The position numbers were made by a program, and so were the translations under genes. Shown here one piece after another: positions 954 through 27,621 of a stretch of DNA of 64,000 bases. The stretch lies in the NCBI GenBank assembly GCA_038227375.1, contig JBBRPY010000007.1, positions 6,681 to 70,680 on the forward strand, read 5' to 3'. This DNA comes from Dehalococcoidia bacterium. GTDB taxonomy: Bacteria > Chloroflexota > Dehalococcoidia > DSTF01 > JACRBR01. How positions within the stretch are numbered: position 1 is the stretch's first letter; every line of letters begins with the position of its first letter. The notes beneath the pieces are model-generated. The model searched no databases. It was not told where the DNA came from and saw only the letters and a list, made by a program, of their open reading frames with translations.

Positions 954-3055
954 GATCGCCCGCACGCTTTCGCTGAAGCCGGCCTGGGGCCGCTGTCCCG
1001 GAACGACGTCACGTCGTACACGCGGATGCGCTGGGCATCGGCGCCGTAGGTGAGCCGGGCCGATCCGCGCGCGACGAGATCGTCCAGCATCGGCTGCTCA
1101 TTCGTGCGGAATTCGTTCTGGTAGCCACGTTCGACGACGACGCGGTCGACGTGCTTCGCCGCCAGATAGCACTGATAGCTGCTCTCGCTCCAGTTGCCGC
1201 GGCGCTGGCTCTCGCTGAAGAGCTCGTTGGCAAGCACGGCGTGCTTCCGCATGAGGAAGTAGGCGCCCTGCTCGCGCTCATTCGGGCTGAGGACGCGATA
1301 GACGGCGCCCGCATGAAAGTCGCCAGACTGGAGATAGCCGCGATAGTTGTTCGGTGCGCTGTAGACGATGCCCGCGTAGCTCCCCTGCCTCGCGAAGGAA
1401 TAATCCTCGACGACGGGCACGCTCGCGAGCGCGCCACCGCTGAGCAGCACCGCCGGCACGGCGACGCCGGCGAATGCGGCGCCGAGCGGCCGGTAGTGCC
1501 GGCGAAGCAGCGGCGCCAGTGATGTGAGCGCAAAGGGCGCCGCAAGGACTGTGCCGCGACGGGGCAGATCTTGCAAGATGGAGAGGGCGACCGTGCGCCA
1601 GGAGTTCTCGGCGAGCGCCGGCGTCCGTAGTGAGAAGTAGAGCGAGGGCGCGAGCAGCGGCGCGACCACGGCGGCCGCGAGCACTATCGGCGTCCGCTTC
1701 TCGGGGCTGCGGACGGCGACCCAGGCGACGTACGCCCCGACGGCCAGCCCTCCCTCGATCGGATGTGTGGATGCGGTGAACCACATCGCTGCGCCGGCTA
1801 ACGCCCAGCTGCGGCGCTCGACGGACCAGACGAGCGCGAAAAACCCCGCCGCCGACCAGAGGAAGGAGTACTGCCCGCTCGCCAGCGCATCGATAAAGAA
1901 TGGGTTGGCGATGAACAGCAGCATCAGCCAGGGGTCCCGCATCGAGGGGCGCACGATCATCGCCGCGGCGGCGACGGCGACGGCGGCCAGCACCAGGAAG
2001 AGGGTGACGGACCAGTCCCCGAACAGCGGGTAGACGAGCGCATTCAGCGTCCACGGGACGGCGCCGTACGGGAAGGTGAATGCCCGGCCGCCGTCAAGCT
2101 CGGCGAACCGCAGCGGAATATGACCGCCACTAAAGAGCCGGTCGCTGATGTACCAGACATGGGCGTAGTTATTCACCGTGTCATCGCCGAGGAATATGGG
2201 GCGGGTGAGAATGCGCAGCACGCCTAGCAGCGCCGCCGCGAAGAACAGCGGCAGCATCCAATACGCGAACCACGTCGGCACACCAGAGGGCAAGTGCCGG
2301 GCCGCCATGACGCGCCACCAGGCGCAGGGCATGGCGACGAGGTCAATCGCCACATCCTTCAGTCGCGTACGCGAGCGGAACACGGGGATGTCAACCAGCG
2401 TCGTGTCATGCACACGGTAGCCGAGGATCGGCAGGATCACCGCGATCTCGACAGTCTCGCTGTACTTGTATCCCTTGTAGTAGCGCAGCGCATCGAGCAA
2501 CGGCCCGACACGAAACGCGCGGTAGCCCGACTCGACATCGTGATAACGGCGACCCGACCAGACCGAAGCCCAGGCGGACATCACCCAGTTGCCCATGCGC
2601 TTGTAGAGCGGGTACAGCCGGAAATCCCGGCGTGCGATGACGGCGTCGAATCCTTCCTCGATGGGCCGGAGCAGCAGATCCATGCTCGCCGGATCGTGCT
2701 GTCCGTCGGCGTCGACCGTCAGCACAACATCGTCCTGGTCGAGCTGGCCCAGCGCGACCATGCGGCCCAGGTGAAGAAACGCTTCGTAGTACGCGGCCGA
2801 CATGCCGCGATTCTTGTTGAAGGAGATCAGTTGCGCGTGGGGCTTGTCGGCGAGCCACGTGAACACCGCATGCCGCGTGCCGTCTTCCGAACCATCATCG
2901 ACGATGAGGAGGCGGTCGACAAGCGGATAGAGATGTTCGAGCACGCCGACGATCGTCGACTCCTCGTTGAACGCGGGCATGACCGCAACCAGCCGAGGCC
3001 GCGTCTTGGGGGCCGGCGCCTGCGTCGCGATGATGCGCTCCGGTGCTTCGATCAT
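950..3055 (-). CDS. GT2 polyprenol-phosphate glycosyltransferase fused to a polytopic GT-C-like membrane domain
   Basis: N-terminal VMPAFNEE, IVDDGSED, DADGQH and DVESGYRAF (DPM1/ArnC-like), then multiple TM helices with a GDDTVNNYAHVWY loop; ATG 3055 overlaps the epimerase stop. Confidence 0.85.
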   Translation of the reverse strand: MIEAPERIIATQAPAPKTRPRLVAVMPAFNEESTIVGVLEHLYPLVDRLLIVDDGSEDGTRHAVFTWLADKPHAQLISFNKNRGMSAAYYEAFLHLGRMVALGQLDQDDVVLTVDADGQHDPASMDLLLRPIEEGFDAVIARRDFRLYPLYKRMGNWVMSAWASVWSGRRYHDVESGYRAFRVGPLLDALRYYKGYKYSETVEIAVILPILGYRVHDTTLVDIPVFRSRTRLKDVAIDLVAMPCAWWRVMAARHLPSGVPTWFAYWMLPLFFAAALLGVLRILTRPIFLGDDTVNNYAHVWYISDRLFSGGHIPLRFAELDGGRAFTFPYGAVPWTLNALVYPLFGDWSVTLFLVLAAVAVAAAAMIVRPSMRDPWLMLLFIANPFFIDALASGQYSFLWSAAGFFALVWSVERRSWALAGAAMWFTASTHPIEGGLAVGAYVAWVAVRSPEKRTPIVLAAAVVAPLLAPSLYFSLRTPALAENSWRTVALSILQDLPRRGTVLAAPFALTSLAPLLRRHYRPLGAAFAGVAVPAVLLSGGALASVPVVEDYSFARQGSYAGIVYSAPNNYRGYLQSGDFHAGAVYRVLSPNEREQGAYFLMRKHAVLANELFSESQRRGNWSESSYQCYLAAKHVDRVVVERGYQNEFRTNEQPMLDDLVARGSARLTYGADAQRIRVYDVTSFRDSGPRPASAKACGRS

Positions 3056-8618: not shown

Positions 8619-9942
8619 GCTCGTACAGACTAACCCAACCGCCGCGAGCCGTTCCCGGCGCGATGCGGCGGCGACATGGGTCCGCGAGCCCGCGCACGCC
8701 GTGCTTCTGCTGACGGCGCTCGCATGGGCAGCCGTCCTCGCAGTCATGCTGACGCACCGCATCTTCGTCACGAACGACTCACTCAGTAACTACATCCACG
8801 TCTGGTACATCGCGGACCGATTCTGGCACGGCCACGGCGTGCCGCTCTACATGCCTGTGCTGGGCCACGGCGATGCCTTCGCCTTCCCCTACGGCTTCAT
8901 TCCGTGGGCGAGCGCGGCGCTGCTCCGGCCGGTCTTCGGCGACTGGATCGTCACGGCCTGGCTGGTCGCCGGATTCGCCGGCGTGGTCGCGGCGCAGTGG
9001 TGGGCGTTCCCCGAACTGCGCAGCGGCTGGTGGCCCGCGTTGCTGCTGGTCGATCCGATGCTCGTGGAAGCGCCGCTGCTCGGTCAGTTGCCGTTTCTCT
9101 GGGCGACCGCGATGCTCTTCGGCGCCATCGCCTGCTGGCGGCGGGACCGCCGCGCGTGGGCGGCACTGCTCGCCGGCGCCGCGCAGGCGACGCACCCGGC
9201 CGTGCTGCTGCCCATCGCCGGCGTGCTGGTCGTCGTCTGGTGGTTCTGGGAGCCGCGTCGGCGGTCGCTCCTCGGATGGTACGCACTGTCGCTCGCGCTG
9301 GCGGCGCCCGCGGTCTTGATCGTGCTGGCGTCGCCGTCGGTCGGCGACGCATCCACTTCCACGCTGCTCAGCACATTCTTCGGGACGGTAGTCCTGCGGG
9401 CGATCGTCGTTGCCGCTCCGTTCATCGGCATCGCCGCGCAGCACACGCCGCTCGCGCGCATCCAGCCGTTGATCTACGCGGGCCTGATCGCGCTGACGGC
9501 GGCGCTGATCCCGATCCGGCACAACGGCTACGCCTACTGGGCGCTGACGCGATCGCCCGACGAATCGATGCTGGCATTCGTTCACTCCGCCGATTTCGCG
9601 CCGGGAGCGAACTATCGAATCCTTCGCGTCGGCGACGGCAAGATCGGCATGTACGACCTCGTGCGCAACGGCGCCCGGTTGGACTCCGAGCCCTTCCCCG
9701 AGAGCATCGACCGACGCAGCTTTCCGACTTCCGCTCAATATCTGCGGTTCCTCGGCGCGCGGGATGTAGACTACGTGATCGTCTACGACGCCTACGACGC
9801 CCGCTACGGCACGAACGAGCATCATCTGCTCCGTGAGATGGCGCTCGATCCGTCACTCCAGTGCGCCTCCGTGACGACGCAGGGCGACGGATATGACGTC
9901 TATCAGATTGCACCCGCGGATCAGTGCGCGCTCTTGCGGTGA
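8617..9942 (+). CDS. Polytopic membrane protein, GT-C-like; paralogue of the C-terminal domain of 950-3055
   Basis: Shared motifs NDSLSNYIHVWYIADR / DDTVNNYAHVWYISDR, AFAFPYGFIPW / AFTFPYGAVPW, GQLPFLW / GQYSFLW, ATHP / STHP, YGTNEH / FRTNEQ. Start uncertain. Confidence 0.75.
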   Translation: MLVQTNPTAASRSRRDAAATWVREPAHAVLLLTALAWAAVLAVMLTHRIFVTNDSLSNYIHVWYIADRFWHGHGVPLYMPVLGHGDAFAFPYGFIPWASAALLRPVFGDWIVTAWLVAGFAGVVAAQWWAFPELRSGWWPALLLVDPMLVEAPLLGQLPFLWATAMLFGAIACWRRDRRAWAALLAGAAQATHPAVLLPIAGVLVVVWWFWEPRRRSLLGWYALSLALAAPAVLIVLASPSVGDASTSTLLSTFFGTVVLRAIVVAAPFIGIAAQHTPLARIQPLIYAGLIALTAALIPIRHNGYAYWALTRSPDESMLAFVHSADFAPGANYRILRVGDGKIGMYDLVRNGARLDSEPFPESIDRRSFPTSAQYLRFLGARDVDYVIVYDAYDARYGTNEHHLLREMALDPSLQCASVTTQGDGYDVYQIAPADQCALLR

Positions 9943-9956
9943 GGTACGCTACCGAC

Positions 9957-11357
9957 ATGGAACCGCGCATCCAGTACGCGACGGCGCCGGACGGCGTCAG
10001 CATCGCATTCTCCACGCTGGGCGCGGGATTGCCGCTCGTGATACCGCCGCCCGCCCTCCCCTGGAGCCACCTCGAGCTGGAGTGGCAGATTCCGGAATGG
10101 CGCCACTACTACGAGCATCTGGCGGACCGGTATCGCGTCGTCCGTTACGACAGCCGGGGAGCGGGCCTCTCCGACCGGAACATTGGCGACTACACCTTCG
10201 ACGACCTGTTGAGCGACCTCGAGGCGGTAGTCGACCGGCTCGGGACGGATCGCATCGCACTCTTCGGGACGTACTACACCGCGCCGGTCGCCATCGCCTA
10301 CGCCGCACGCCACCCCGAACGCGTCTCGCATCTCCTCCTCTGGTGCGGCTTCGCGCGCGCGTCGGACAACGACCAGCCGCCCGCGGTCGCCGCAGCGGTG
10401 GAGCGGCTGCTCGAGCTCGACTACGCGCTGTTCACCGAAACGCTCGCGCACACTGTCTTCGGCTGGTCAGAGGGCGAAGCGGCGCATCGTGTGGCGCAGT
10501 ACATGCAGCAGAGCCTTAGCGCCCACGCGGCGGGCCGCTTCTGGAAACTGAACCAGTCGTTCGATGTGGAAGATCTGCTCCCCGATATCACGGCGCCGGC
10601 ACTGATCCTGCACCGGCGCGACTTTCCCTTTGTCGGCCAGAACGTCGCCCGCCGCCTTGCGGCTCGCATTGCGGACGCTCGCCTCGTCCTGCTCGATGGC
10701 GAATCGCTCGCGCCGTACACAGGCGACATCGAACCGCTGTTGAAGATCCTCGACGAGTTTCTCGGCGGCGCGCCGTCCGAGGTCCCGGCTTCGAGGAGCT
10801 CTCACCCGCACGTCGGGTCTACGGGGCAGGCCGCCACCGCCGGTGGCTTTCGCACGATCATGTTCACCGACATGGAGGGATCGACCGCCCTCACGCAGCG
10901 CCTCGGCGACGCCGCTGCGCAAAATCTCGTCCGCCTGCACAACAGCATCGTCAGCGATGCGCTGAGGACGCACGGCGGCACCCACGTGAAGCACACCGGC
11001 GACGGCATCATGGCGTCCTTTCTGACGGCCTCGGCCGCCGTCGAGTGCGCGATCGCGGTTCAGCGCGAGCTGGCGCGGCACAACGAGCGCAACCCGCATG
11101 AGCCGGTATCGGTGCGCATCGGCATCAACGCGGGCGAGCCCGTCCTCGAAGGCGATGACCTCTTCGGCACCGCGGTGCAGCTTGCCTCCCGCGTCTGCGC
11201 CAGGGCCGATGCCGGCGCGATCCTCGCCTCCGATGTCGTGCGGCAACTGGTGGCCGGCAAGGGCTTTCTGTTCGCGAACCACGGCGAAGCAGAACTGCGC
11301 GGTTTCGAAGACCCAGTCCGGCTCTACGAAGTGCGCTGGCACGATGACAGTCGCTAG
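9957..11357 (+). CDS. Alpha/beta-hydrolase-fold plus class III adenylate/guanylate cyclase (LipJ-like)
   Basis: RYDSRGAGLSD hydrolase segment; cyclase motifs FTDMEGST, KHTGDG, RIGINAGE, DLFGTAV. Confidence 0.88.
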   Translation: MEPRIQYATAPDGVSIAFSTLGAGLPLVIPPPALPWSHLELEWQIPEWRHYYEHLADRYRVVRYDSRGAGLSDRNIGDYTFDDLLSDLEAVVDRLGTDRIALFGTYYTAPVAIAYAARHPERVSHLLLWCGFARASDNDQPPAVAAAVERLLELDYALFTETLAHTVFGWSEGEAAHRVAQYMQQSLSAHAAGRFWKLNQSFDVEDLLPDITAPALILHRRDFPFVGQNVARRLAARIADARLVLLDGESLAPYTGDIEPLLKILDEFLGGAPSEVPASRSSHPHVGSTGQAATAGGFRTIMFTDMEGSTALTQRLGDAAAQNLVRLHNSIVSDALRTHGGTHVKHTGDGIMASFLTASAAVECAIAVQRELARHNERNPHEPVSVRIGINAGEPVLEGDDLFGTAVQLASRVCARADAGAILASDVVRQLVAGKGFLFANHGEAELRGFEDPVRLYEVRWHDDSR

Positions 11358-22920: not shown

Positions 22921-23004
22921 CGTCCCCTGAGGTCGAAGCTCCTGAATGCCGCTTCCCCAAAGCCATGCCGTCTCACTGGCTGACATAGCCATGTTCGACC
23001 CCGA

Positions 23005-23580
23005 TCAGGTCGCCGGGTCCACCTGCTTCATTGTTTTCCGGAGTGAATTGAGGGCGCGATGCTGGATCACCCGGATGGCGGCCACACTCTTCCCGATAAT
23101 CTCCGCTACTTCTCGGTAATCCAGATCTTCGATGAAACGGAGGATGATCACCTGGCGCTGCTCTTCCCGCAGCGTCAGAATCGCCTCCCGCACCAGTTCC
23201 TCCTCGGCGGTCCGCTCGTAGGCCGATTCTGGGTCGCGGTCGGACTTGTGCTCGACGATGCCGTCGTGGAGTTCCGATGACTCGCGCTTGGAGCGGAGGT
23301 AGCTCACGCCGAGATTGTGGGCGATGCGCAGCAGCCACGAGACGAAGGGCGCTCCCCGCACCTGATATCGCTCGATCGCCTCCCAGGCGCGCAGGAACGC
23401 CTGTGCTGTCAGATCCTCTGCCTCGGCGGCGTTGCCCACCATGTAATAGATGTGGCGGTAGACGCGGACCACGTGGCGGTCGTACAGCTCGCCGAACGCC
23501 TCCTGGTCCTTCTGGATGGCACGCAGGACGAGCGGAAGGTCGTCGTTCGCGCGCGGGACGGAGGAGTTGACGCTGACCAT
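23005..23580 (-). CDS. ECF sigma factor, BldN-like
   Basis: EAFGELYD...VYRHIYY...AEDLT...FLRA...SWLLRIAHN; region 4 KSVAAIRVIQHRAL. Start 23580 or 23625. Confidence 0.88.
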   Translation of the reverse strand: MVSVNSSVPRANDDLPLVLRAIQKDQEAFGELYDRHVVRVYRHIYYMVGNAAEAEDLTAQAFLRAWEAIERYQVRGAPFVSWLLRIAHNLGVSYLRSKRESSELHDGIVEHKSDRDPESAYERTAEEELVREAILTLREEQRQVIILRFIEDLDYREVAEIIGKSVAAIRVIQHRALNSLRKTMKQVDPAT

Positions 23581-23677
23581 ATGCCCTTGCACTCCCCGAA
23601 CTGACGCCGCGCACATTCGGGACAAATGAGCGCCGTCGATGGTGAAGTCACCTACGGGTGCGTTTGCGTCCCAATGA

Positions 23678-23759: not shown

Positions 23760-25571
23760 TCAGTCGCTGCGCGGCATCAGCTCGGAAACGCTCGATGAGG
23801 GCATCTGGGTGCTCGGCCGCGCGGGCGGCTCCGGCGCGCGCCGGACGCTCGGCGGCACGGTCTCTTCGCCCGCCAGCGGCGGAGGCAGCAGCCGGAACTC
23901 GAATGTGTGCTGGCCGATCGCGAACGTGTCGCCGGATTCAAGGATCTGCCAGCCGCCGCTCGATCCGTCGGTCACCATCGCTGTCAGCCGCGTCATCTTG
24001 TGGACCATCAGCTGGCCCTTGCGGATCCAGATGCGCGCCTCCTCGGCCGTAAGCTCCGGGTCAGGAACGCGCACTGCACAGCGCGCGCCGGAACCGATGC
24101 TGACCGGGCTGGCGCCAACGCTGTACTCGCTCCCCAGGTCTGATCCGGCGCGCGAGATCAATATGCCAAGCGCCTCACCGACGGCTTCGTCCGGGGCCGA
24201 ATCATCGGGAGCGTCGGCGGGGCCGCCGCGGGTCAGGATTGGCTTGGCGAACGGCACGACGCGGCCGATGTCCGGAGCGTCTCCTCGCCGCGCGACGCGC
24301 ACCCGCGCCACGACGAACACGATAATCGCGATGATAGCCCCCACCGCGGCGCCGATGAAGACGAGCGGCGTGCTCGAGCCACCGCCGGCCGCCGGCACAA
24401 TCACCGGAACTACCGAGGAGAACTGCACGGATGCCTCAGAACTCCGGCCGCCCGTCTGGGCGCCCACGGAGAGCACGTGCGATCCGCCAGTGAATGATCG
24501 CGGATCGAACATCCAGGCGTACGGCGGGTCCACCGTCTCGAAGACCCTGACGCCATCCACGTGAAACGAGACGCGCGTACCGGCGCCGCTTGCGCCCGCA
24601 TCGACGGTGATCGTCCGCGCCGTCGTCAGCGATTCGCCGGCGGCCAGTCCCTTGATTGTGATCGGGACAGGGAAAAAGCCGGCGCCCGGGGTGTACGCCG
24701 CGGCCGCGATCACGGACGACCCCGAGTGCGCGACGCCGATCGACACCTGCGACCCTGTCGCGACCGCCGCCGAGGCGTCGAAGCTGACGATGTACTGCGA
24801 ATGAAGCAACTGCCCGACACCGGCGTAGAGCGCCGACAGGTCTTTCGGATCGGGCGCTTCGAGGTAGCGACCGTGCGTGACCTCGGCTAGCTGCTTCAGA
24901 TACGCCCGGTCAATGTCGCGGCCCTCACCAATGGTGAAGAAGGGCACGCCGATCCCACCAGCGGCGCCGATTGCTTGATCGCGTCCGATCGTCAGCGGCA
25001 CGCCGTCCTGCGCGCCATCGCTGAGGAAGATCACCGCGCGGCGGCTCGCGACCGATGTATTGACCTTGATCGCGGTGTTCGCCGTGGCTTGATAGAGCGC
25101 GGTGTTTCCGCGGGCAACCAGCCCATCAATCGCGTCGGTCATCGCTTTGCGGTCGGTCGTGTAGTCCTGCACGGACTGCACCTGGTCGGCGAAGCTGAAC
25201 AGCGCCACGCGGTCGCCGGGCACGAGCCCGGTGAGAAATCCCTTCGCCGCCTCCTTCGCCCGCGCGATCGGCTCGCCGCCCATGCTGCCGCTGGTGTCGA
25301 TGACGAACAGCACATCGAGTAGGATGTTCTGGCTCGATGCGAGGTCGGCGGAAACGACGGCGGCGGGCTTGCCGTCCACCGTGGCGGTGAAGTCCGCCGT
25401 CTTCAGGCCGGCGATCGCGGCGCCGGACCGGTCGTCGAGGTTGACCAGCGCGCGGGCGTTCGGGTAGTCGCCGTCCTTGATGCTTACGATGTCCGCGCGC
25501 AGCGTCGAGGGCTGCTGGGCGTGCGCCAGCGATAGCGTCAACACGCCCACGAGAGCGATGACGAGGACCAT
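23760..25571 (-). CDS. Single-pass protein: extracellular VWA plus Ig-like domain, TM, cytoplasmic FHA-like domain
   Basis: Signal peptide, MIDAS DTSGS, TALY, FLSDG; VSFHVDG...PPY Ig-like; TM; C-terminal LESGDTFAIG FHA-like end. Confidence 0.82.
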   Translation of the reverse strand: MVLVIALVGVLTLSLAHAQQPSTLRADIVSIKDGDYPNARALVNLDDRSGAAIAGLKTADFTATVDGKPAAVVSADLASSQNILLDVLFVIDTSGSMGGEPIARAKEAAKGFLTGLVPGDRVALFSFADQVQSVQDYTTDRKAMTDAIDGLVARGNTALYQATANTAIKVNTSVASRRAVIFLSDGAQDGVPLTIGRDQAIGAAGGIGVPFFTIGEGRDIDRAYLKQLAEVTHGRYLEAPDPKDLSALYAGVGQLLHSQYIVSFDASAAVATGSQVSIGVAHSGSSVIAAAAYTPGAGFFPVPITIKGLAAGESLTTARTITVDAGASGAGTRVSFHVDGVRVFETVDPPYAWMFDPRSFTGGSHVLSVGAQTGGRSSEASVQFSSVVPVIVPAAGGGSSTPLVFIGAAVGAIIAIIVFVVARVRVARRGDAPDIGRVVPFAKPILTRGGPADAPDDSAPDEAVGEALGILISRAGSDLGSEYSVGASPVSIGSGARCAVRVPDPELTAEEARIWIRKGQLMVHKMTRLTAMVTDGSSGGWQILESGDTFAIGQHTFEFRLLPPPLAGEETVPPSVRRAPEPPARPSTQMPSSSVSELMPRSD

Positions 25572-25694
25572 GATCCGTGCCAGTGTTATCGATGCGTTCG
25601 CCGTCGGATCCTCTCGATCTTGTGTGTCCGCTTACTCGCAGATGCGGCGAACAGCGGGCCTTCCATTTTTGTGTAAAGTTCGTCTCGTCGACTC

Positions 25695-25723
25695 TTGACA
25701 ACCGGTCCGCCGGATGCCAGAAT
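25695..25723 (+). promoter_or_regulatory. Housekeeping sigma70 promoter
   Basis: TTGACA-N17-CAGAAT with extended TGn. Confidence 0.75.
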
Positions 25724-25729
25724 CGACCC

Positions 25730-25967
25730 ACTTGAAGCGCGCGTTCGGCCAGTGGCACGCCGATCCCTCCGGGGCCGTCGCACTTCACAAGGCAGTATCG
25801 ACAGAATGTGGGCCGCGCTGAGCGGTACCGCGCGCCAAGCACGGATGCTAGGGCACGCAAGTCCGAAGCAGTTCCAGGGCGCGCTTTTTCGTCGCGCGCC
25901 AGATCGCGCCTTTGCTCTGCAAAGGCCCTCACATCGGGGCTACGGGTCCAGGGGACGCGCGTTCAGG
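25730..25967 (+). ncRNA. Candidate structured small RNA (~240 nt; 6S/Ms1-like hypothesis)
   Basis: Starts at the predicted TSS; 25731-25764 pairs with 25933-25967 in four stacked helices; several internal hairpins; no credible ORF. Confidence 0.6.
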
Positions 25968-26048
25968 AGGCGGGGCCTGGCTGGCGTCCTCTGGCCCCAA
26001 CCCATTTCCCGCCGAACCGCCCTCCCTCTCATCGCCGCCTCCCCTAAG

Positions 26049-26075
26049 TGCAGCTTTCTCGGCGCCAACCGATAT
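26049..26075 (+). promoter_or_regulatory. Possible sigma28-type promoter of the AAA ATPase
   Basis: TGCAG-N14-ACCGATAT; -35 is a weak match. Confidence 0.35.
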
Positions 26076-26196
26076 TCCTTTCGGAGGGCATCCGAAGGGC
26101 CGCGGCTCTTTCCGTCTCCATGCGACCGGGACGAACCCGCTCGGACACAGTAGTGGGAGCAGACGTGAGCAACGCGCGCGCTTCGGAGTGCACCTC

Positions 26197-27621
26197 ATGA
26201 CGACCGAGATCGCCGGCGGTCTGCGCACATCCCTGGCCGACACTCCCACCCTCCTCGACGCCGCCGCGACGGATGACACGGCAGCGCCGTTCGTGCCTCA
26301 ACCGCAGACCATCGAGGAAACCGGGCTCGACTTCTCGATGATGCTGGATCTCGTCGTGAAGTCCATCTACTTCGCCGGCCGACCGGCGGCGCGTCAGATC
26401 GCCGCCCAGCTCGCCCTCAGCTTTCCCGTGCTCGAGGAGGTGCTTGCCTTCATGAAGCGGGAGCAGCTCGCGGAAGTGGTCGGGAGCTCCGGGATGGGCG
26501 AGCAGCTCTATCAGTATTCGCTCTCCGGCAAAGGGCTGGAGAAGGCGGAGGAGGCGCTGAGCCGCAACCAGTACATCGGGCCGGCGCCCGTGCCCTTCGA
26601 GGTGTATCTCGAAGTGCTGAAGAAGCAATCCGTGCGTTCGGTACGCATCAGCTCGCAGTCGGTCGAGCAGGCAATCTCACATCTCGTGCTCGCCGAGCAG
26701 GTCGGCCTCGCCCTCGGACCGGCGGTCAATTCCGGGCGCTCGATGCTGCTGTACGGCGGGTCGGGCAACGGCAAGAGCACGATCACCAGCGCTATCGGCC
26801 GGATGCTGCCGGGCGAGGTGTTGATCCCGTACGCGATTGACCTCAACGGCATCATCGTCAAGGTCTTCGACCCGCGCGTCCACCACGAGATCCCGACAGA
26901 AAAGCAGATGGAGCGCCGCGCATCAGACGCGCCCGTCAACGGCGGCGCCGAGCGCAGACGCGACCGGCGCTGGGTCGTCGCGCGGCGGCCGATGATCACG
27001 GCCGGCGGCGAGTTGACGCTGAAGGACTTGGAGCTCCGCTACGCCGCGCAGTCGCAGTTCTACATCGCGCCGCTGCAGTGGAAGGCGAACAGTGGCATTC
27101 TCATCGTCGACGACTTCGGGCGCCAGATGATCCAGCCGAAGGAGCTGCTCAACCGCTGGATCGTGCCGATGGAGGAGCGCATCGACCACCTGTCCCTGCA
27201 CACGGGCGACATGGTGGAAGTGCCGTTCGACGTGCTGCTGATCTTTTCGACGAACCTCCGGCCCTCCCAGCTCGGCGATGAGGCGTTCTTTCGCCGCATC
27301 CGCCACAAGATCGAGATCCCCGACCCCACGCGCGAGCAGTTTCTCGAGATCCTCGCCCGCGTCTGCCAGCAACGCGAGATGCCGCTGGACACCGACGCCG
27401 CTCTCTACCTCATCGACGAGTACTACGACCGCACCGGGCGCGGCTTCAAGGGATGCCATCCGCGCGACATCATGGAGCTCGTCGTCGATATCTGCATGTA
27501 CCACGATGAGTCACCGGCGTTTACGCGCCGCCACCTCGACGCCGCCTGCCACTCGTACTTTGTCGACATGCAGGAAGATCCGGCGCCGGCGCGGACCAGC
27601 TTCGGCGGCCTCGCAGCGTAG
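26197..27621 (+). CDS. AAA+ ATPase of unknown function (N-terminal winged-helix-like region)
   Basis: Walker A GGSGNGKS, Walker B ILIVDDFGRQ, FSTNL, AFFRRIRHK; GGAG RBS before ATG 26197. Confidence 0.85.
   Translation: MTTEIAGGLRTSLADTPTLLDAAATDDTAAPFVPQPQTIEETGLDFSMMLDLVVKSIYFAGRPAARQIAAQLALSFPVLEEVLAFMKREQLAEVVGSSGMGEQLYQYSLSGKGLEKAEEALSRNQYIGPAPVPFEVYLEVLKKQSVRSVRISSQSVEQAISHLVLAEQVGLALGPAVNSGRSMLLYGGSGNGKSTITSAIGRMLPGEVLIPYAIDLNGIIVKVFDPRVHHEIPTEKQMERRASDAPVNGGAERRRDRRWVVARRPMITAGGELTLKDLELRYAAQSQFYIAPLQWKANSGILIVDDFGRQMIQPKELLNRWIVPMEERIDHLSLHTGDMVEVPFDVLLIFSTNLRPSQLGDEAFFRRIRHKIEIPDPTREQFLEILARVCQQREMPLDTDAALYLIDEYYDRTGRGFKGCHPRDIMELVVDICMYHDESPAFTRRHLDAACHSYFVDMQEDPAPARTSFGGLAA

Follow-up and report, generated by a model that had tools for sequence, protein, structure and literature searches.

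What occupies the 625-nt intergenic gap (25572-26196) between a Tad-pilus operon and an ATPase gene in a Dehalococcoidia bacterium (phylum Chloroflexota)? The gap lies in a 64,000-nt stretch of contig JBBRPY010000007.1 (assembly GCA_038227375.1, positions 6,681 to 70,680), hereafter the window, from whose first letter plain positions are counted, and it lacks the codon-position GC periodicity that is present in both flanking genes. A first-pass annotation, made from the letters alone, had proposed here an unannotated, highly structured RNA behind a promoter. Conservation among homologues and covariation bear out a plus-strand structured RNA of about 240-280 nt, which belongs to no Rfam family. 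As to its role, we lean cautiously towards a separately transcribed regulatory small RNA (sRNA) of about 280 nt that would belong to a surface-attachment module, with a 3' hairpin as both its end structure and its partner-binding part. The coordinates of all features are collected in Table 1.

A conserved hairpin at the 3' end

A DNA search of 41 related genomes gave a match in 31, namely in all 24 genomes of family f1, both of f4, three of four of f5 and one of five of f2, with none in the five of f3. Conservation runs from the promoter to the end of the core in 45 distinct loci. The core, a 73-nt block (25936-26008), is 82-100% identical in 30 of 30 fetched loci, while the flanking DNA is far more variable. 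Gene order is conserved as well: a VWA-domain gene lies on one side of the core in 28 of 30 loci, and the gene of a 474-aa ATPase, p474, on the other in 26 of 30. We did not see p474 in L010, L012, L017 and L019; the first two loci are short (0.8-0.9 kb past the core), and the contexts of the last two differ from the usual VWA-core-p474 order.

Where p474 is at least 58% identical, a covariance model built from the core block (R1) detected the core in every one of 38 loci, plus-stranded and ahead of p474; where p474 identity is 45% or less, in 42 loci from Anaerolineae, Nitrospirota, Bryobacterales and other groups, it detected none (best E 0.09). The window's genome holds a single copy. When 151 genomes sampled across the class were scanned with stricter filters, five were positive, all from families f1 and f2 of the same order, and no core was detected in the other families of that sample. 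Divergent cores were added from one f2 genome (G025, by R1) and, through a 16-mer search, from metagenomes; among the best 80 of 118 metagenomic stretches, ten were cores (R1, E ≤1e-5), five of them divergent, and the remaining 70 fail R1 and were taken as chance matches. The unpublished genome G001 contributes one row (L003) to alignments A1, A3, A4 and A7; an identical copy of the stretch stands in the public record behind L065, and no claim is made on G001 alone. The best explanation of this distribution is a lineage-specific RNA gene, apparently confined to one Dehalococcoidia order.

RNAalifold folds the core block into three nested helices, the long one bearing an internal loop and an apical stem-loop. 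In 44 distinct cores, 98.3% of the cells were paired and four pairs were changed on both sides. With 55 distinct cores, 97.8% were paired and 11 of 21 pairs were changed on both sides, in 28 such cells; none of 500 shuffles scored as high on at least four of five measures and slid partner columns gave 25-65% paired, figures to be read with the alignment having been fitted to the model and kinship among the sequences inflating shuffle tests. The arms of the long helix change together, as in CCAGGGGACGC/GCGUCCCCUGG, CCGGAGAC/GUCUCCGG, CCGGAUGGC/GCCUCCGG and CCGGAAAGC/GCUUCCGG. Many variants are G-U or U-G pairs (for example, nine GU at pair 20:61 and eight UG at 24:57), and because these would be A-C mismatches on the minus strand, the RNA is the plus strand, the same as that of the promoter. 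The core hairpin is a plus-strand structured RNA element.

Loops of the core are conserved too. The 16-nt apical stem-loop is letter-perfect in six of six sequences of the most divergent subgroup, whose internal loops read UUGAGGCA and GGCCGCA against GCGCGUU and GCUG in family f1. Across the 55 cores, only a handful carry one or two substitutions in the stem-loop (L026/L053, L057, L058, L059 and L060), and the four pairs of its stem show only four single-side changes and one double change. Conservation that extends to loops besides stems implies a specific molecular partner.

These data leave hardly any credit for the idea that the block is no RNA at all, being instead a conserved DNA operator array or a small protein gene. 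A 116-codon minus-strand open reading frame (ORF; 25929-26279) and several plus-strand ORFs do overlap the region, and the direction of an RNA-seq contig described below could fit the minus strand. The compensatory changes in 11 helix pairs and the G-U variants, which suit the plus strand only, speak for RNA, and Pfam gave no match for three ORFs overlapping the region. A protein-coding reading of the core is excluded by 1-nt insertions within it in L021 and L024, together with the equal conservation of all three codon positions.

Promoter, 5' domain and the fold proposed earlier

The near-consensus promoter noted in the first-pass annotation is present and preceded by a TG: a -35 element TTGACA (25695-25700), a 17-nt spacer ending in TG-C and a -10 element CAGAAT (25718-25723) make ten of twelve consensus matches. 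A promoter scan found this one site against 0.1 expected from shuffles, and CTTGACA-N17-TGnCAGAAT is conserved among relatives, 170-250 nt ahead of the core. The promoter of the divergent subgroup is TTGACT-N17-TGGCACCAT. In this subgroup (L161, L168, L200, L210, L218 and L124) it lies about 160-200 nt upstream of the core, and an inverted repeat, TTAACGC-N3-5-GCGTTA, is conserved in the spacer that separates the -35 TTGACT from TGGCACCAT, with the look of a repressor's operator. Farther upstream in family f1, at least 70% of the rows agree at four positions of the AT-rich GTAAAGTT block, which may be an UP-element-like or regulator site.

The 5' domains of the relatives share one plan: P1, hairpin P2, P3 (GGUGGAGC with a GCUCUCAC-like strand), an unpaired AGUAUCGAC, hairpins c, e and f, and then the core. 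Over six 5'-domain helices, 94.9% of the cells were paired and nine pairs were changed on both sides, which none of 500 shuffles reached, with slid controls at 38-44%; the 11 sequences used were the best-aligning of 32 from family f1, chosen by hand, and the structure was partly derived from them. P1-P3 (helices 1-3) had seven pairs changed on both sides in 11 relatives. Hairpin c combines 36 distinct 5' arms among 41 sequences with 96.4% of cells paired, and hairpin f is built from many different complementary arm pairs at one position. Two pairings compete in the central region, CGGAU/GUCCG or GC/GC inside GCGCGCC/GGCACGC, and covariation favours neither. L023, for which an internal CTTGAC had been picked, was dropped from the later 5' alignments, and alignment A4 holds 29 of the 32 sequences (without L010, L012 and L068).

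The first 60 nt of the window's own copy are atypical for the RNA family; the congener L003 has the usual P1 and P2. In the window fold, a P3-like AGUG-G-C (25751-56) pairs with GCACU (25780-84) and UGAAG (25733-37) with CUUCA (25783-87), P3 having been mapped onto the window by eye. A 9-nt direct repeat, CGCGCGUUC (CGCGCGTTC), stands at 25738-46 in the 5' end and again at 25956-64 in the core, pointing to a local copying event peculiar to this genome.

This repeat contains the self-complementary CGCGCG and for that reason produces the apparent long stem with which the first-pass annotation had closed its RNA. The 15 pairs of that stem (25731-25746/25953-25967) had 63.0% of cells paired across the 29 homologues of A4, a value reached by 433 of 500 shuffles, and a slid version of the stem reached 58.9%. 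Since its 3' half falls within the core's long helix, the two are mutually exclusive. The helices listed with it can be drawn, and the minimum-free-energy (MFE) fold of 25728-26000 contains the closing stem, GGCC, GUGGC, CCGAU and GGGGCC; that fold is no more stable than dinucleotide shuffles, and such helices arise for free because the sequence is 70% G+C. Two inner hairpins from the same list, GGCGCGC/GCGCGCC (25878-84/25894-900) and GCCUUUGC/GCAAAGGC (25908-15/25919-26), are conserved and covary. Of an AGCA/UGCU hairpin only a 2-bp GC/GC element remains, GGGC/GUCC and a terminal GGGGCC/GGCCCC hairpin clash with the covarying core helix, and the end drawn at 26000 truncates the element, whose conserved core reaches about 26008. 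Covariation, scored as pair counts against shuffles, supports the conserved local helices and the 3' hairpin and not the closing-stem fold.

That fold had carried the suggestion of an RNA-polymerase binder of the 6S or Ms1 kind. The resemblance to 6S (RF00013) is that of a non-coding RNA of a few hundred nucleotides whose strong, conserved promoter suggests abundance, and the 6S role appears vacant: RF00013 found nothing in the window, nothing at E up to 10 in 25400-26400, nothing in the genome (97.55% complete) and nothing detectable in 31 genomes of the order. Mycobacterial Ms1, at about 300 nt, is of similar size and, as the first-pass annotation has it, also lies near tad genes. We nevertheless consider a polymerase binder highly improbable. 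There is no match to a covariance model in Rfam, although whether Ms1 is among its families is unconfirmed; the closing stem is not conserved, and what is conserved is a string of local helices instead of a rod around a central bubble, so that the rod-like shape that would recall Ms1, an RNA of a different phylum, is unconserved here. The distribution is patchy within the order, f3 (0/5) and most of f2 being without the RNA, yet equally without detectable 6S, and the core also occurs inside an mRNA leader. RF00013 is able to find 6S in other Chloroflexota: in an Anaerolineae metagenome-assembled genome, a bona fide 6S (L070:7090-7268, minus strand, 55.6 bits) stands a few kb away from the p474 homologue.

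Separate transcript or mRNA leader

Past the core, 20-150 nt are unalignable; then come, in 31 downstream regions, a sharp conserved block, a conserved 5' untranslated region (UTR) and p474. The bipartite motif at 26050-26076 resembles the sigma-28 (FliA/WhiG) consensus, TAAAGTTT-N11-GCCGATAA, and the UTR that follows it is conserved and structured (GGAGGACA...GGGGGAGCCGCCGCUC...CUCCG). The genome has two FliA/WhiG-like sigma genes, at 186 and 177 bits, both under the cut-off of 189.6. By prediction, p474 very probably has its own promoter. In the strict form GCTTT-N10-12-CCGATA, this sigma-28-like motif occurs only twice in the genome, and no regulon can be defined from it.

Possible signs of termination follow the core in many relatives. 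Among 51 distinct loci, 34 have at least three U in the first eight nucleotides after the core and seven have at least five (for example GUUUUUUG in L168 and GUACUUUUUU in L200); a separate hairpin with a U-run stands between the core and the p474 motif in seven (L009, L014, L018, L022, L023, L068 and L210). With a conserved promoter-like motif in front of p474 itself, and with terminators past the core in several relatives, the RNA is probably transcribed separately from the p474 mRNA, and it is unlikely to be only a long 5' UTR of the ATPase gene, an alternative raised in the first-pass annotation.

A weak hint of a short product comes from RNA-seq library X6 of another study, in which a single contig of 108 nt (depth 12) spans 25933-26003, differing by one mismatch. 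The loose ends on both sides are presumably Illumina adapter, and the contig may represent, in a relative, a discrete insert some 70 nt long that coincides with the core. Coverage gaps (X2 over 25623-26032; X6 outside 25933-26003) carry no information.

In some relatives the core has different company. A cyclic di-GMP (c-di-GMP)-I aptamer lies about 50 nt after the core in L012 (f1, genus g8), L017 and L019 (f4), L027 (f5) and L064, at 39-50 bits (gathering score 35); L029, at 34.8, falls just below. The aptamer has a terminator hairpin, after which an ORF begins. Judged from this arrangement, the core is a module that an mRNA leader can carry in front of a second-messenger riboswitch. In L019, where the upstream neighbour is ftsZ and not the Tad operon, the ORF (1800-2768, plus strand) encodes a Thr/Pro-rich protein with LPSTG, a membrane span and a basic tail at its end. 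In L027, L029, L030, L061 and L064 the short ORFs behind the riboswitch have LPxTG-like ends, read by eye, with a membrane span and a basic tail, and in L010 and L012 only a remnant of about 36 codons of the surface-protein ORF is left. Across L019 and the short ORFs the variants are LPSTG, LPTSG, LPVAG and LPPAG, all LPxTG-like; the genes behind a core and c-di-GMP-I leader encode small or Thr/Pro-rich secreted proteins that are likely sortase substrates.

The window's intergenic region has no match to RF01051, the aptamer of the relatives lying after the core and not within it, and the three c-di-GMP-I aptamers of this genome are all elsewhere. One (59.7 bits, C12:29455-29534) stands about 120 nt upstream of a FliA/WhiG-like sigma gene (C12:29655-30326, 177.5 bits; L259, G000:C12:27955-31034), an arrangement by which the second messenger may control a sigma-28-type regulon that possibly includes p474. 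The other two are at C2:51614 and, about 4 kb past the window end, at C7:74835. No c-di-GMP riboswitch was detected upstream of distant p474 homologues in 20 loci.

The leaders give weight to the main competitor of the sRNA reading, a cis-acting leader in which the element would act as an orphan aptamer of the riboswitch kind or as an attenuator under protein control. Its regulated terminator would be the core, and it would control the LPXTG gene in f4 and f5 and, through read-through in f1, p474. Core and c-di-GMP-I aptamer share one leader in the five loci above, with L029 just sub-threshold; wherever p474 follows, the RNA is upstream of it and co-oriented; and U-runs come straight after the core in many loci. 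In L014, L022 and L068, moreover, the 3' strand of the outer helix, AACCCG, could pair (by eye) with a downstream GGG(U)U, and pockets for a ligand or a protein typically have conserved nucleotides in loops and bulges. Riboswitch terminators, however, are usually the least conserved part, the opposite of the case here, where no part is more conserved than the hairpin. The stretch between core and p474 motif varies in length and sequence, p474 has its own promoter-like motif, separate terminators lie past the core in seven of 51 loci, and no conserved antiterminator pairing was found, pairing between 5' end and core being at shuffle level. On balance we hold a cis-acting leader to be possible, though a good deal less probable than a separate sRNA.

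Candidate partners and biological setting

None of the known classes tried accounts for the element. The Rfam check suggested in the first-pass annotation, with the 4227 families of Rfam 15 run over the whole window, gave zero matches at gathering score, and a permissive run on 25400-26400 gave four sub-threshold ones (Atu_L6, 16.3 bits against 100, and three microRNA families), attributed to chance. ARAGORN found neither tRNA nor tmRNA in the window. A divergent housekeeping RNA was rejected, as signal recognition particle RNA and RNase P RNA were found elsewhere in the genome. For an HDV-like or hatchet-like ribozyme core, brought to mind by the sharp 5' end of the contig, inspection by hand could place none of the catalytic-core features, and the ribozyme families of Rfam gave no match. 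A T-box was rejected as well: GGUGGUACCG in L002 looks like the T-box sequence but stands at the 5' end, and RF00230 is unmatched.

A CsrA-sequestering RNA of the CsrB/RsmY/RsmZ type, with CAGGAGG and other A(N)GGA motifs as sites, would likewise be a stand-alone structured sRNA with GGA motifs. CAGGAGG and GCACGGAUGC resemble the CsrA site, and the genome has two CsrA genes, one of which (L112, C17:17023-17172) is 2.3 kb from a FliA/WhiG-like sigma gene (L114, C17:14020-14697). There are two CsrA copies in most genomes of family f1 and one in those of f2. GGA is not enriched over 32 RNAs (mean 6.3 against 5.5 expected, z 0.38; ANGGA z 0.7; three GGA in the window RNA) and is mostly paired, as are the two G in the apical GGA. 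All of the order's 41 genomes encode CsrA, whether or not they carry the RNA, and the two are not co-distributed. A CsrA sponge is thus very unlikely.

Two potential pairings of the RNA were discarded. The window's loop complements 26037-26044 (CCGCCUCC) and 26107-26118, matches treated as chance given the null tests below. AGUAUCG(G/A) is the reverse complement of the p474 -10-like box CCGATACT; by eye the two do not co-vary (ACUAUCGAC occurs with CCGATACT, and AGUAUCGAC with CCGATAGT).

We return to the reading that we prefer, that of a separate sRNA. A strong sigma-70-type promoter would start the RNA near 25730, and its 5' domain would fold into the local helices P1-P3, c, e and f around a single-stranded AGUAUCGAC. 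The transcript would end in the 70-nt hairpin (25936-26005/8), which would display the G-rich, Shine-Dalgarno-like CAGG-AGGCGGGG-CCUG. This hairpin would probably be the 3'-end structure, as a leaky terminator or a stabiliser, and would also contact a partner, either a protein or a pyrimidine-rich RNA, with the RNA presumably acting in trans and independently of the p474 mRNA. We infer a regulatory RNA of an attachment module because the gene is always in an attachment neighbourhood: the Tad operon, p474 and, in some cases, LPXTG genes with c-di-GMP-I aptamers.

Several observations weigh against this reading. In f4, f5, L012 and L064 the core stands in an mRNA leader with a c-di-GMP-I aptamer within about 50 nt. 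A terminator scan finds none in the window, where the core is followed by AUUUCCC with three U only, and read-through into p474 is possible. The transcript evidence consists of assembled contigs from one RNA study and a relative, none from this organism; the X6 contig could be DNA carry-over or polymerase chain reaction copies of one molecule, and its read direction would point to the minus strand, contrary to all the other evidence, if the library was dUTP-stranded. The MFE of 25728-26000 (-125.1 kcal/mol) has z = -0.59, with 56 of 200 dinucleotide shuffles as stable, and the minus strand of the same stretch has z = -0.84. Complements of the near-invariant 8-nt loop are at chance level throughout: in the spacer after the core (mean z 0.19, with CCUCC or CUCCU in 19 of 45 spacers), in the p474 5' UTR (mean z 0.07, five of 31 below -1) and genome-wide (46 sites with at most one mismatch against 36 for the reversed control, counted as 12-mers).

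A more speculative scheme, to which we give a rather low probability, would join both behaviours of the core. It would be an orphan ligand or protein sensor, once in series with a c-di-GMP-I riboswitch in a two-input control of an adhesin, that was freed in most lineages to become the business end of an abundant stand-alone RNA; trimmed to a stable, tRNA-sized product, it would help to switch the cell between motile (sigma-28) and attached (Tad pilus, LPXTG) states.

Precedents exist for parts of these arrangements. In Vibrio cholerae, small RNAs end in the Vc2 c-di-GMP-I riboswitch (Pursley and Waters, 10.1101/617340). The likeness is that f4, f5, L012 and L064 have a promoter-bearing untranslated RNA and then a same-strand c-di-GMP-I aptamer upstream of a lifestyle gene. 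There is no similarity in sequence or structure to the Vibrio leader, control of stability by c-di-GMP would here be an analogy, and the window and most of f1 differ in having no riboswitch, the RNA ending in its own ultra-conserved hairpin. The raiA motif, or ModT (PMC11706538), is likewise a single-copy, complex, conserved structured RNA with its own promoter and a function not evident from sequence; its sequence and fold are unrelated to ours (no Rfam match), and the distribution here, one order, is far narrower. A full-text literature search, which covered articles and not motif lists in supplementary files, returned no description of this RNA, nor of 6S in Dehalococcoidia.

Table 1. Features of the RNA locus and its flanks (positions in the window)
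Feature	Position	Strand	Remarks
VWA / Ig-like / FHA-like protein gene	23760..25571	-	Pfam matches; heads divergent Tad (Flp) pilus operon; conserved upstream neighbour
AT-rich block GTAAAGTT, ~15 nt upstream of -35	25673..25680	+	partly conserved in 25 aligned family-f1 upstream regions
Sigma-70-type promoter TTGACA-N17-(TG)C-CAGAAT	25695..25723	+	predicted start near 25730; kept in relatives
Whole RNA gene, 5' domain and 3' core	25730..26008	+	ends predicted; ~280 nt
5' sub-domain	25730..25793	+	P1/P2/P3 in relatives, possible pseudoknot; window copy atypical
Motif AGUAUCGAC, apparently unpaired	25794..25802	+	near-invariant; UAUCG(A/G) anchor in 41/43 distinct sequences
Hairpin c, GCCGC-GCUGA-GCGGU	25812..25826	+	conserved GNUGA-type loop; RNAalifold pairs 91-95/102-106
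Central region, GCANGGAYGC...CACGCA...GUCCG	25839..25865	+	sequence conservation
Hairpin e, GGCGCGC-loop-GCGCGCC	25878..25900	+	RNAalifold; 95.5% of cells paired, 1 double-side pair
Hairpin f, GCCUUUGC-UCU-GCAAAGGC	25908..25926	+	directly before core; sequence variable, position conserved
Ultra-conserved 3' core	25936..26008	+	outer GGG 25937-39/CCC 26001-03; middle GGG 25944-46/CCC 25995-97; long 25948-57/25985-94
Apical stem-loop, CAGG-AGGCGGGG-CCUG	25964..25979	+	near-invariant; includes AGGAGG
Bipartite motif GCAGCTTT-N11-CCGATATT (YCCAGCTTT-N11-CCGATAYT)	26050..26076	+	~120 nt before p474 start; conserved in 31 regions
p474, 474-aa AAA+ ATPase, uncharacterised	26197..27621	+	GC3 periodicity; weak AAA+ matches; conserved downstream neighbour

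The flanking genes bear on the setting. After the VWA gene, the Tad operon continues with CpaB, a REC-ParA (TadZ-like) protein, CpaF, TadB and TadC. It also holds, after the VWA gene, a 213-aa ORF (22973-23614, minus strand) without a Pfam match; the same ORF gives a 40-bit match to the FliA/WhiG model in its C-terminal part, which is region 4-like with a helix-turn-helix (G000:C7:29706-29978). The p474 protein, 75-88% identical within family f1, matches no Pfam family above threshold; it is a P-loop protein with only weak AAA+ matches. Elsewhere in the window, an ORF at 9924-11357 (plus strand) fuses an alpha/beta-hydrolase domain to an adenylate/guanylate cyclase catalytic domain.

To our knowledge, regulatory RNAs are almost unknown in Chloroflexota. 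The element described here is a new family among the conserved structured sRNAs and leaders of bacteria, with an unusually conserved 70-nt module that an order of uncultured bacteria from soil and sediment keeps at an rRNA- or tRNA-like level. As a well-defined candidate, it invites both entry into Rfam as a new family and fishing for a ligand or protein. Its place between pilus genes and a putatively sigma-28-dependent ATPase gene, together with the coupling to c-di-GMP and sortase-type proteins in relatives, points to a control of attachment versus motility.

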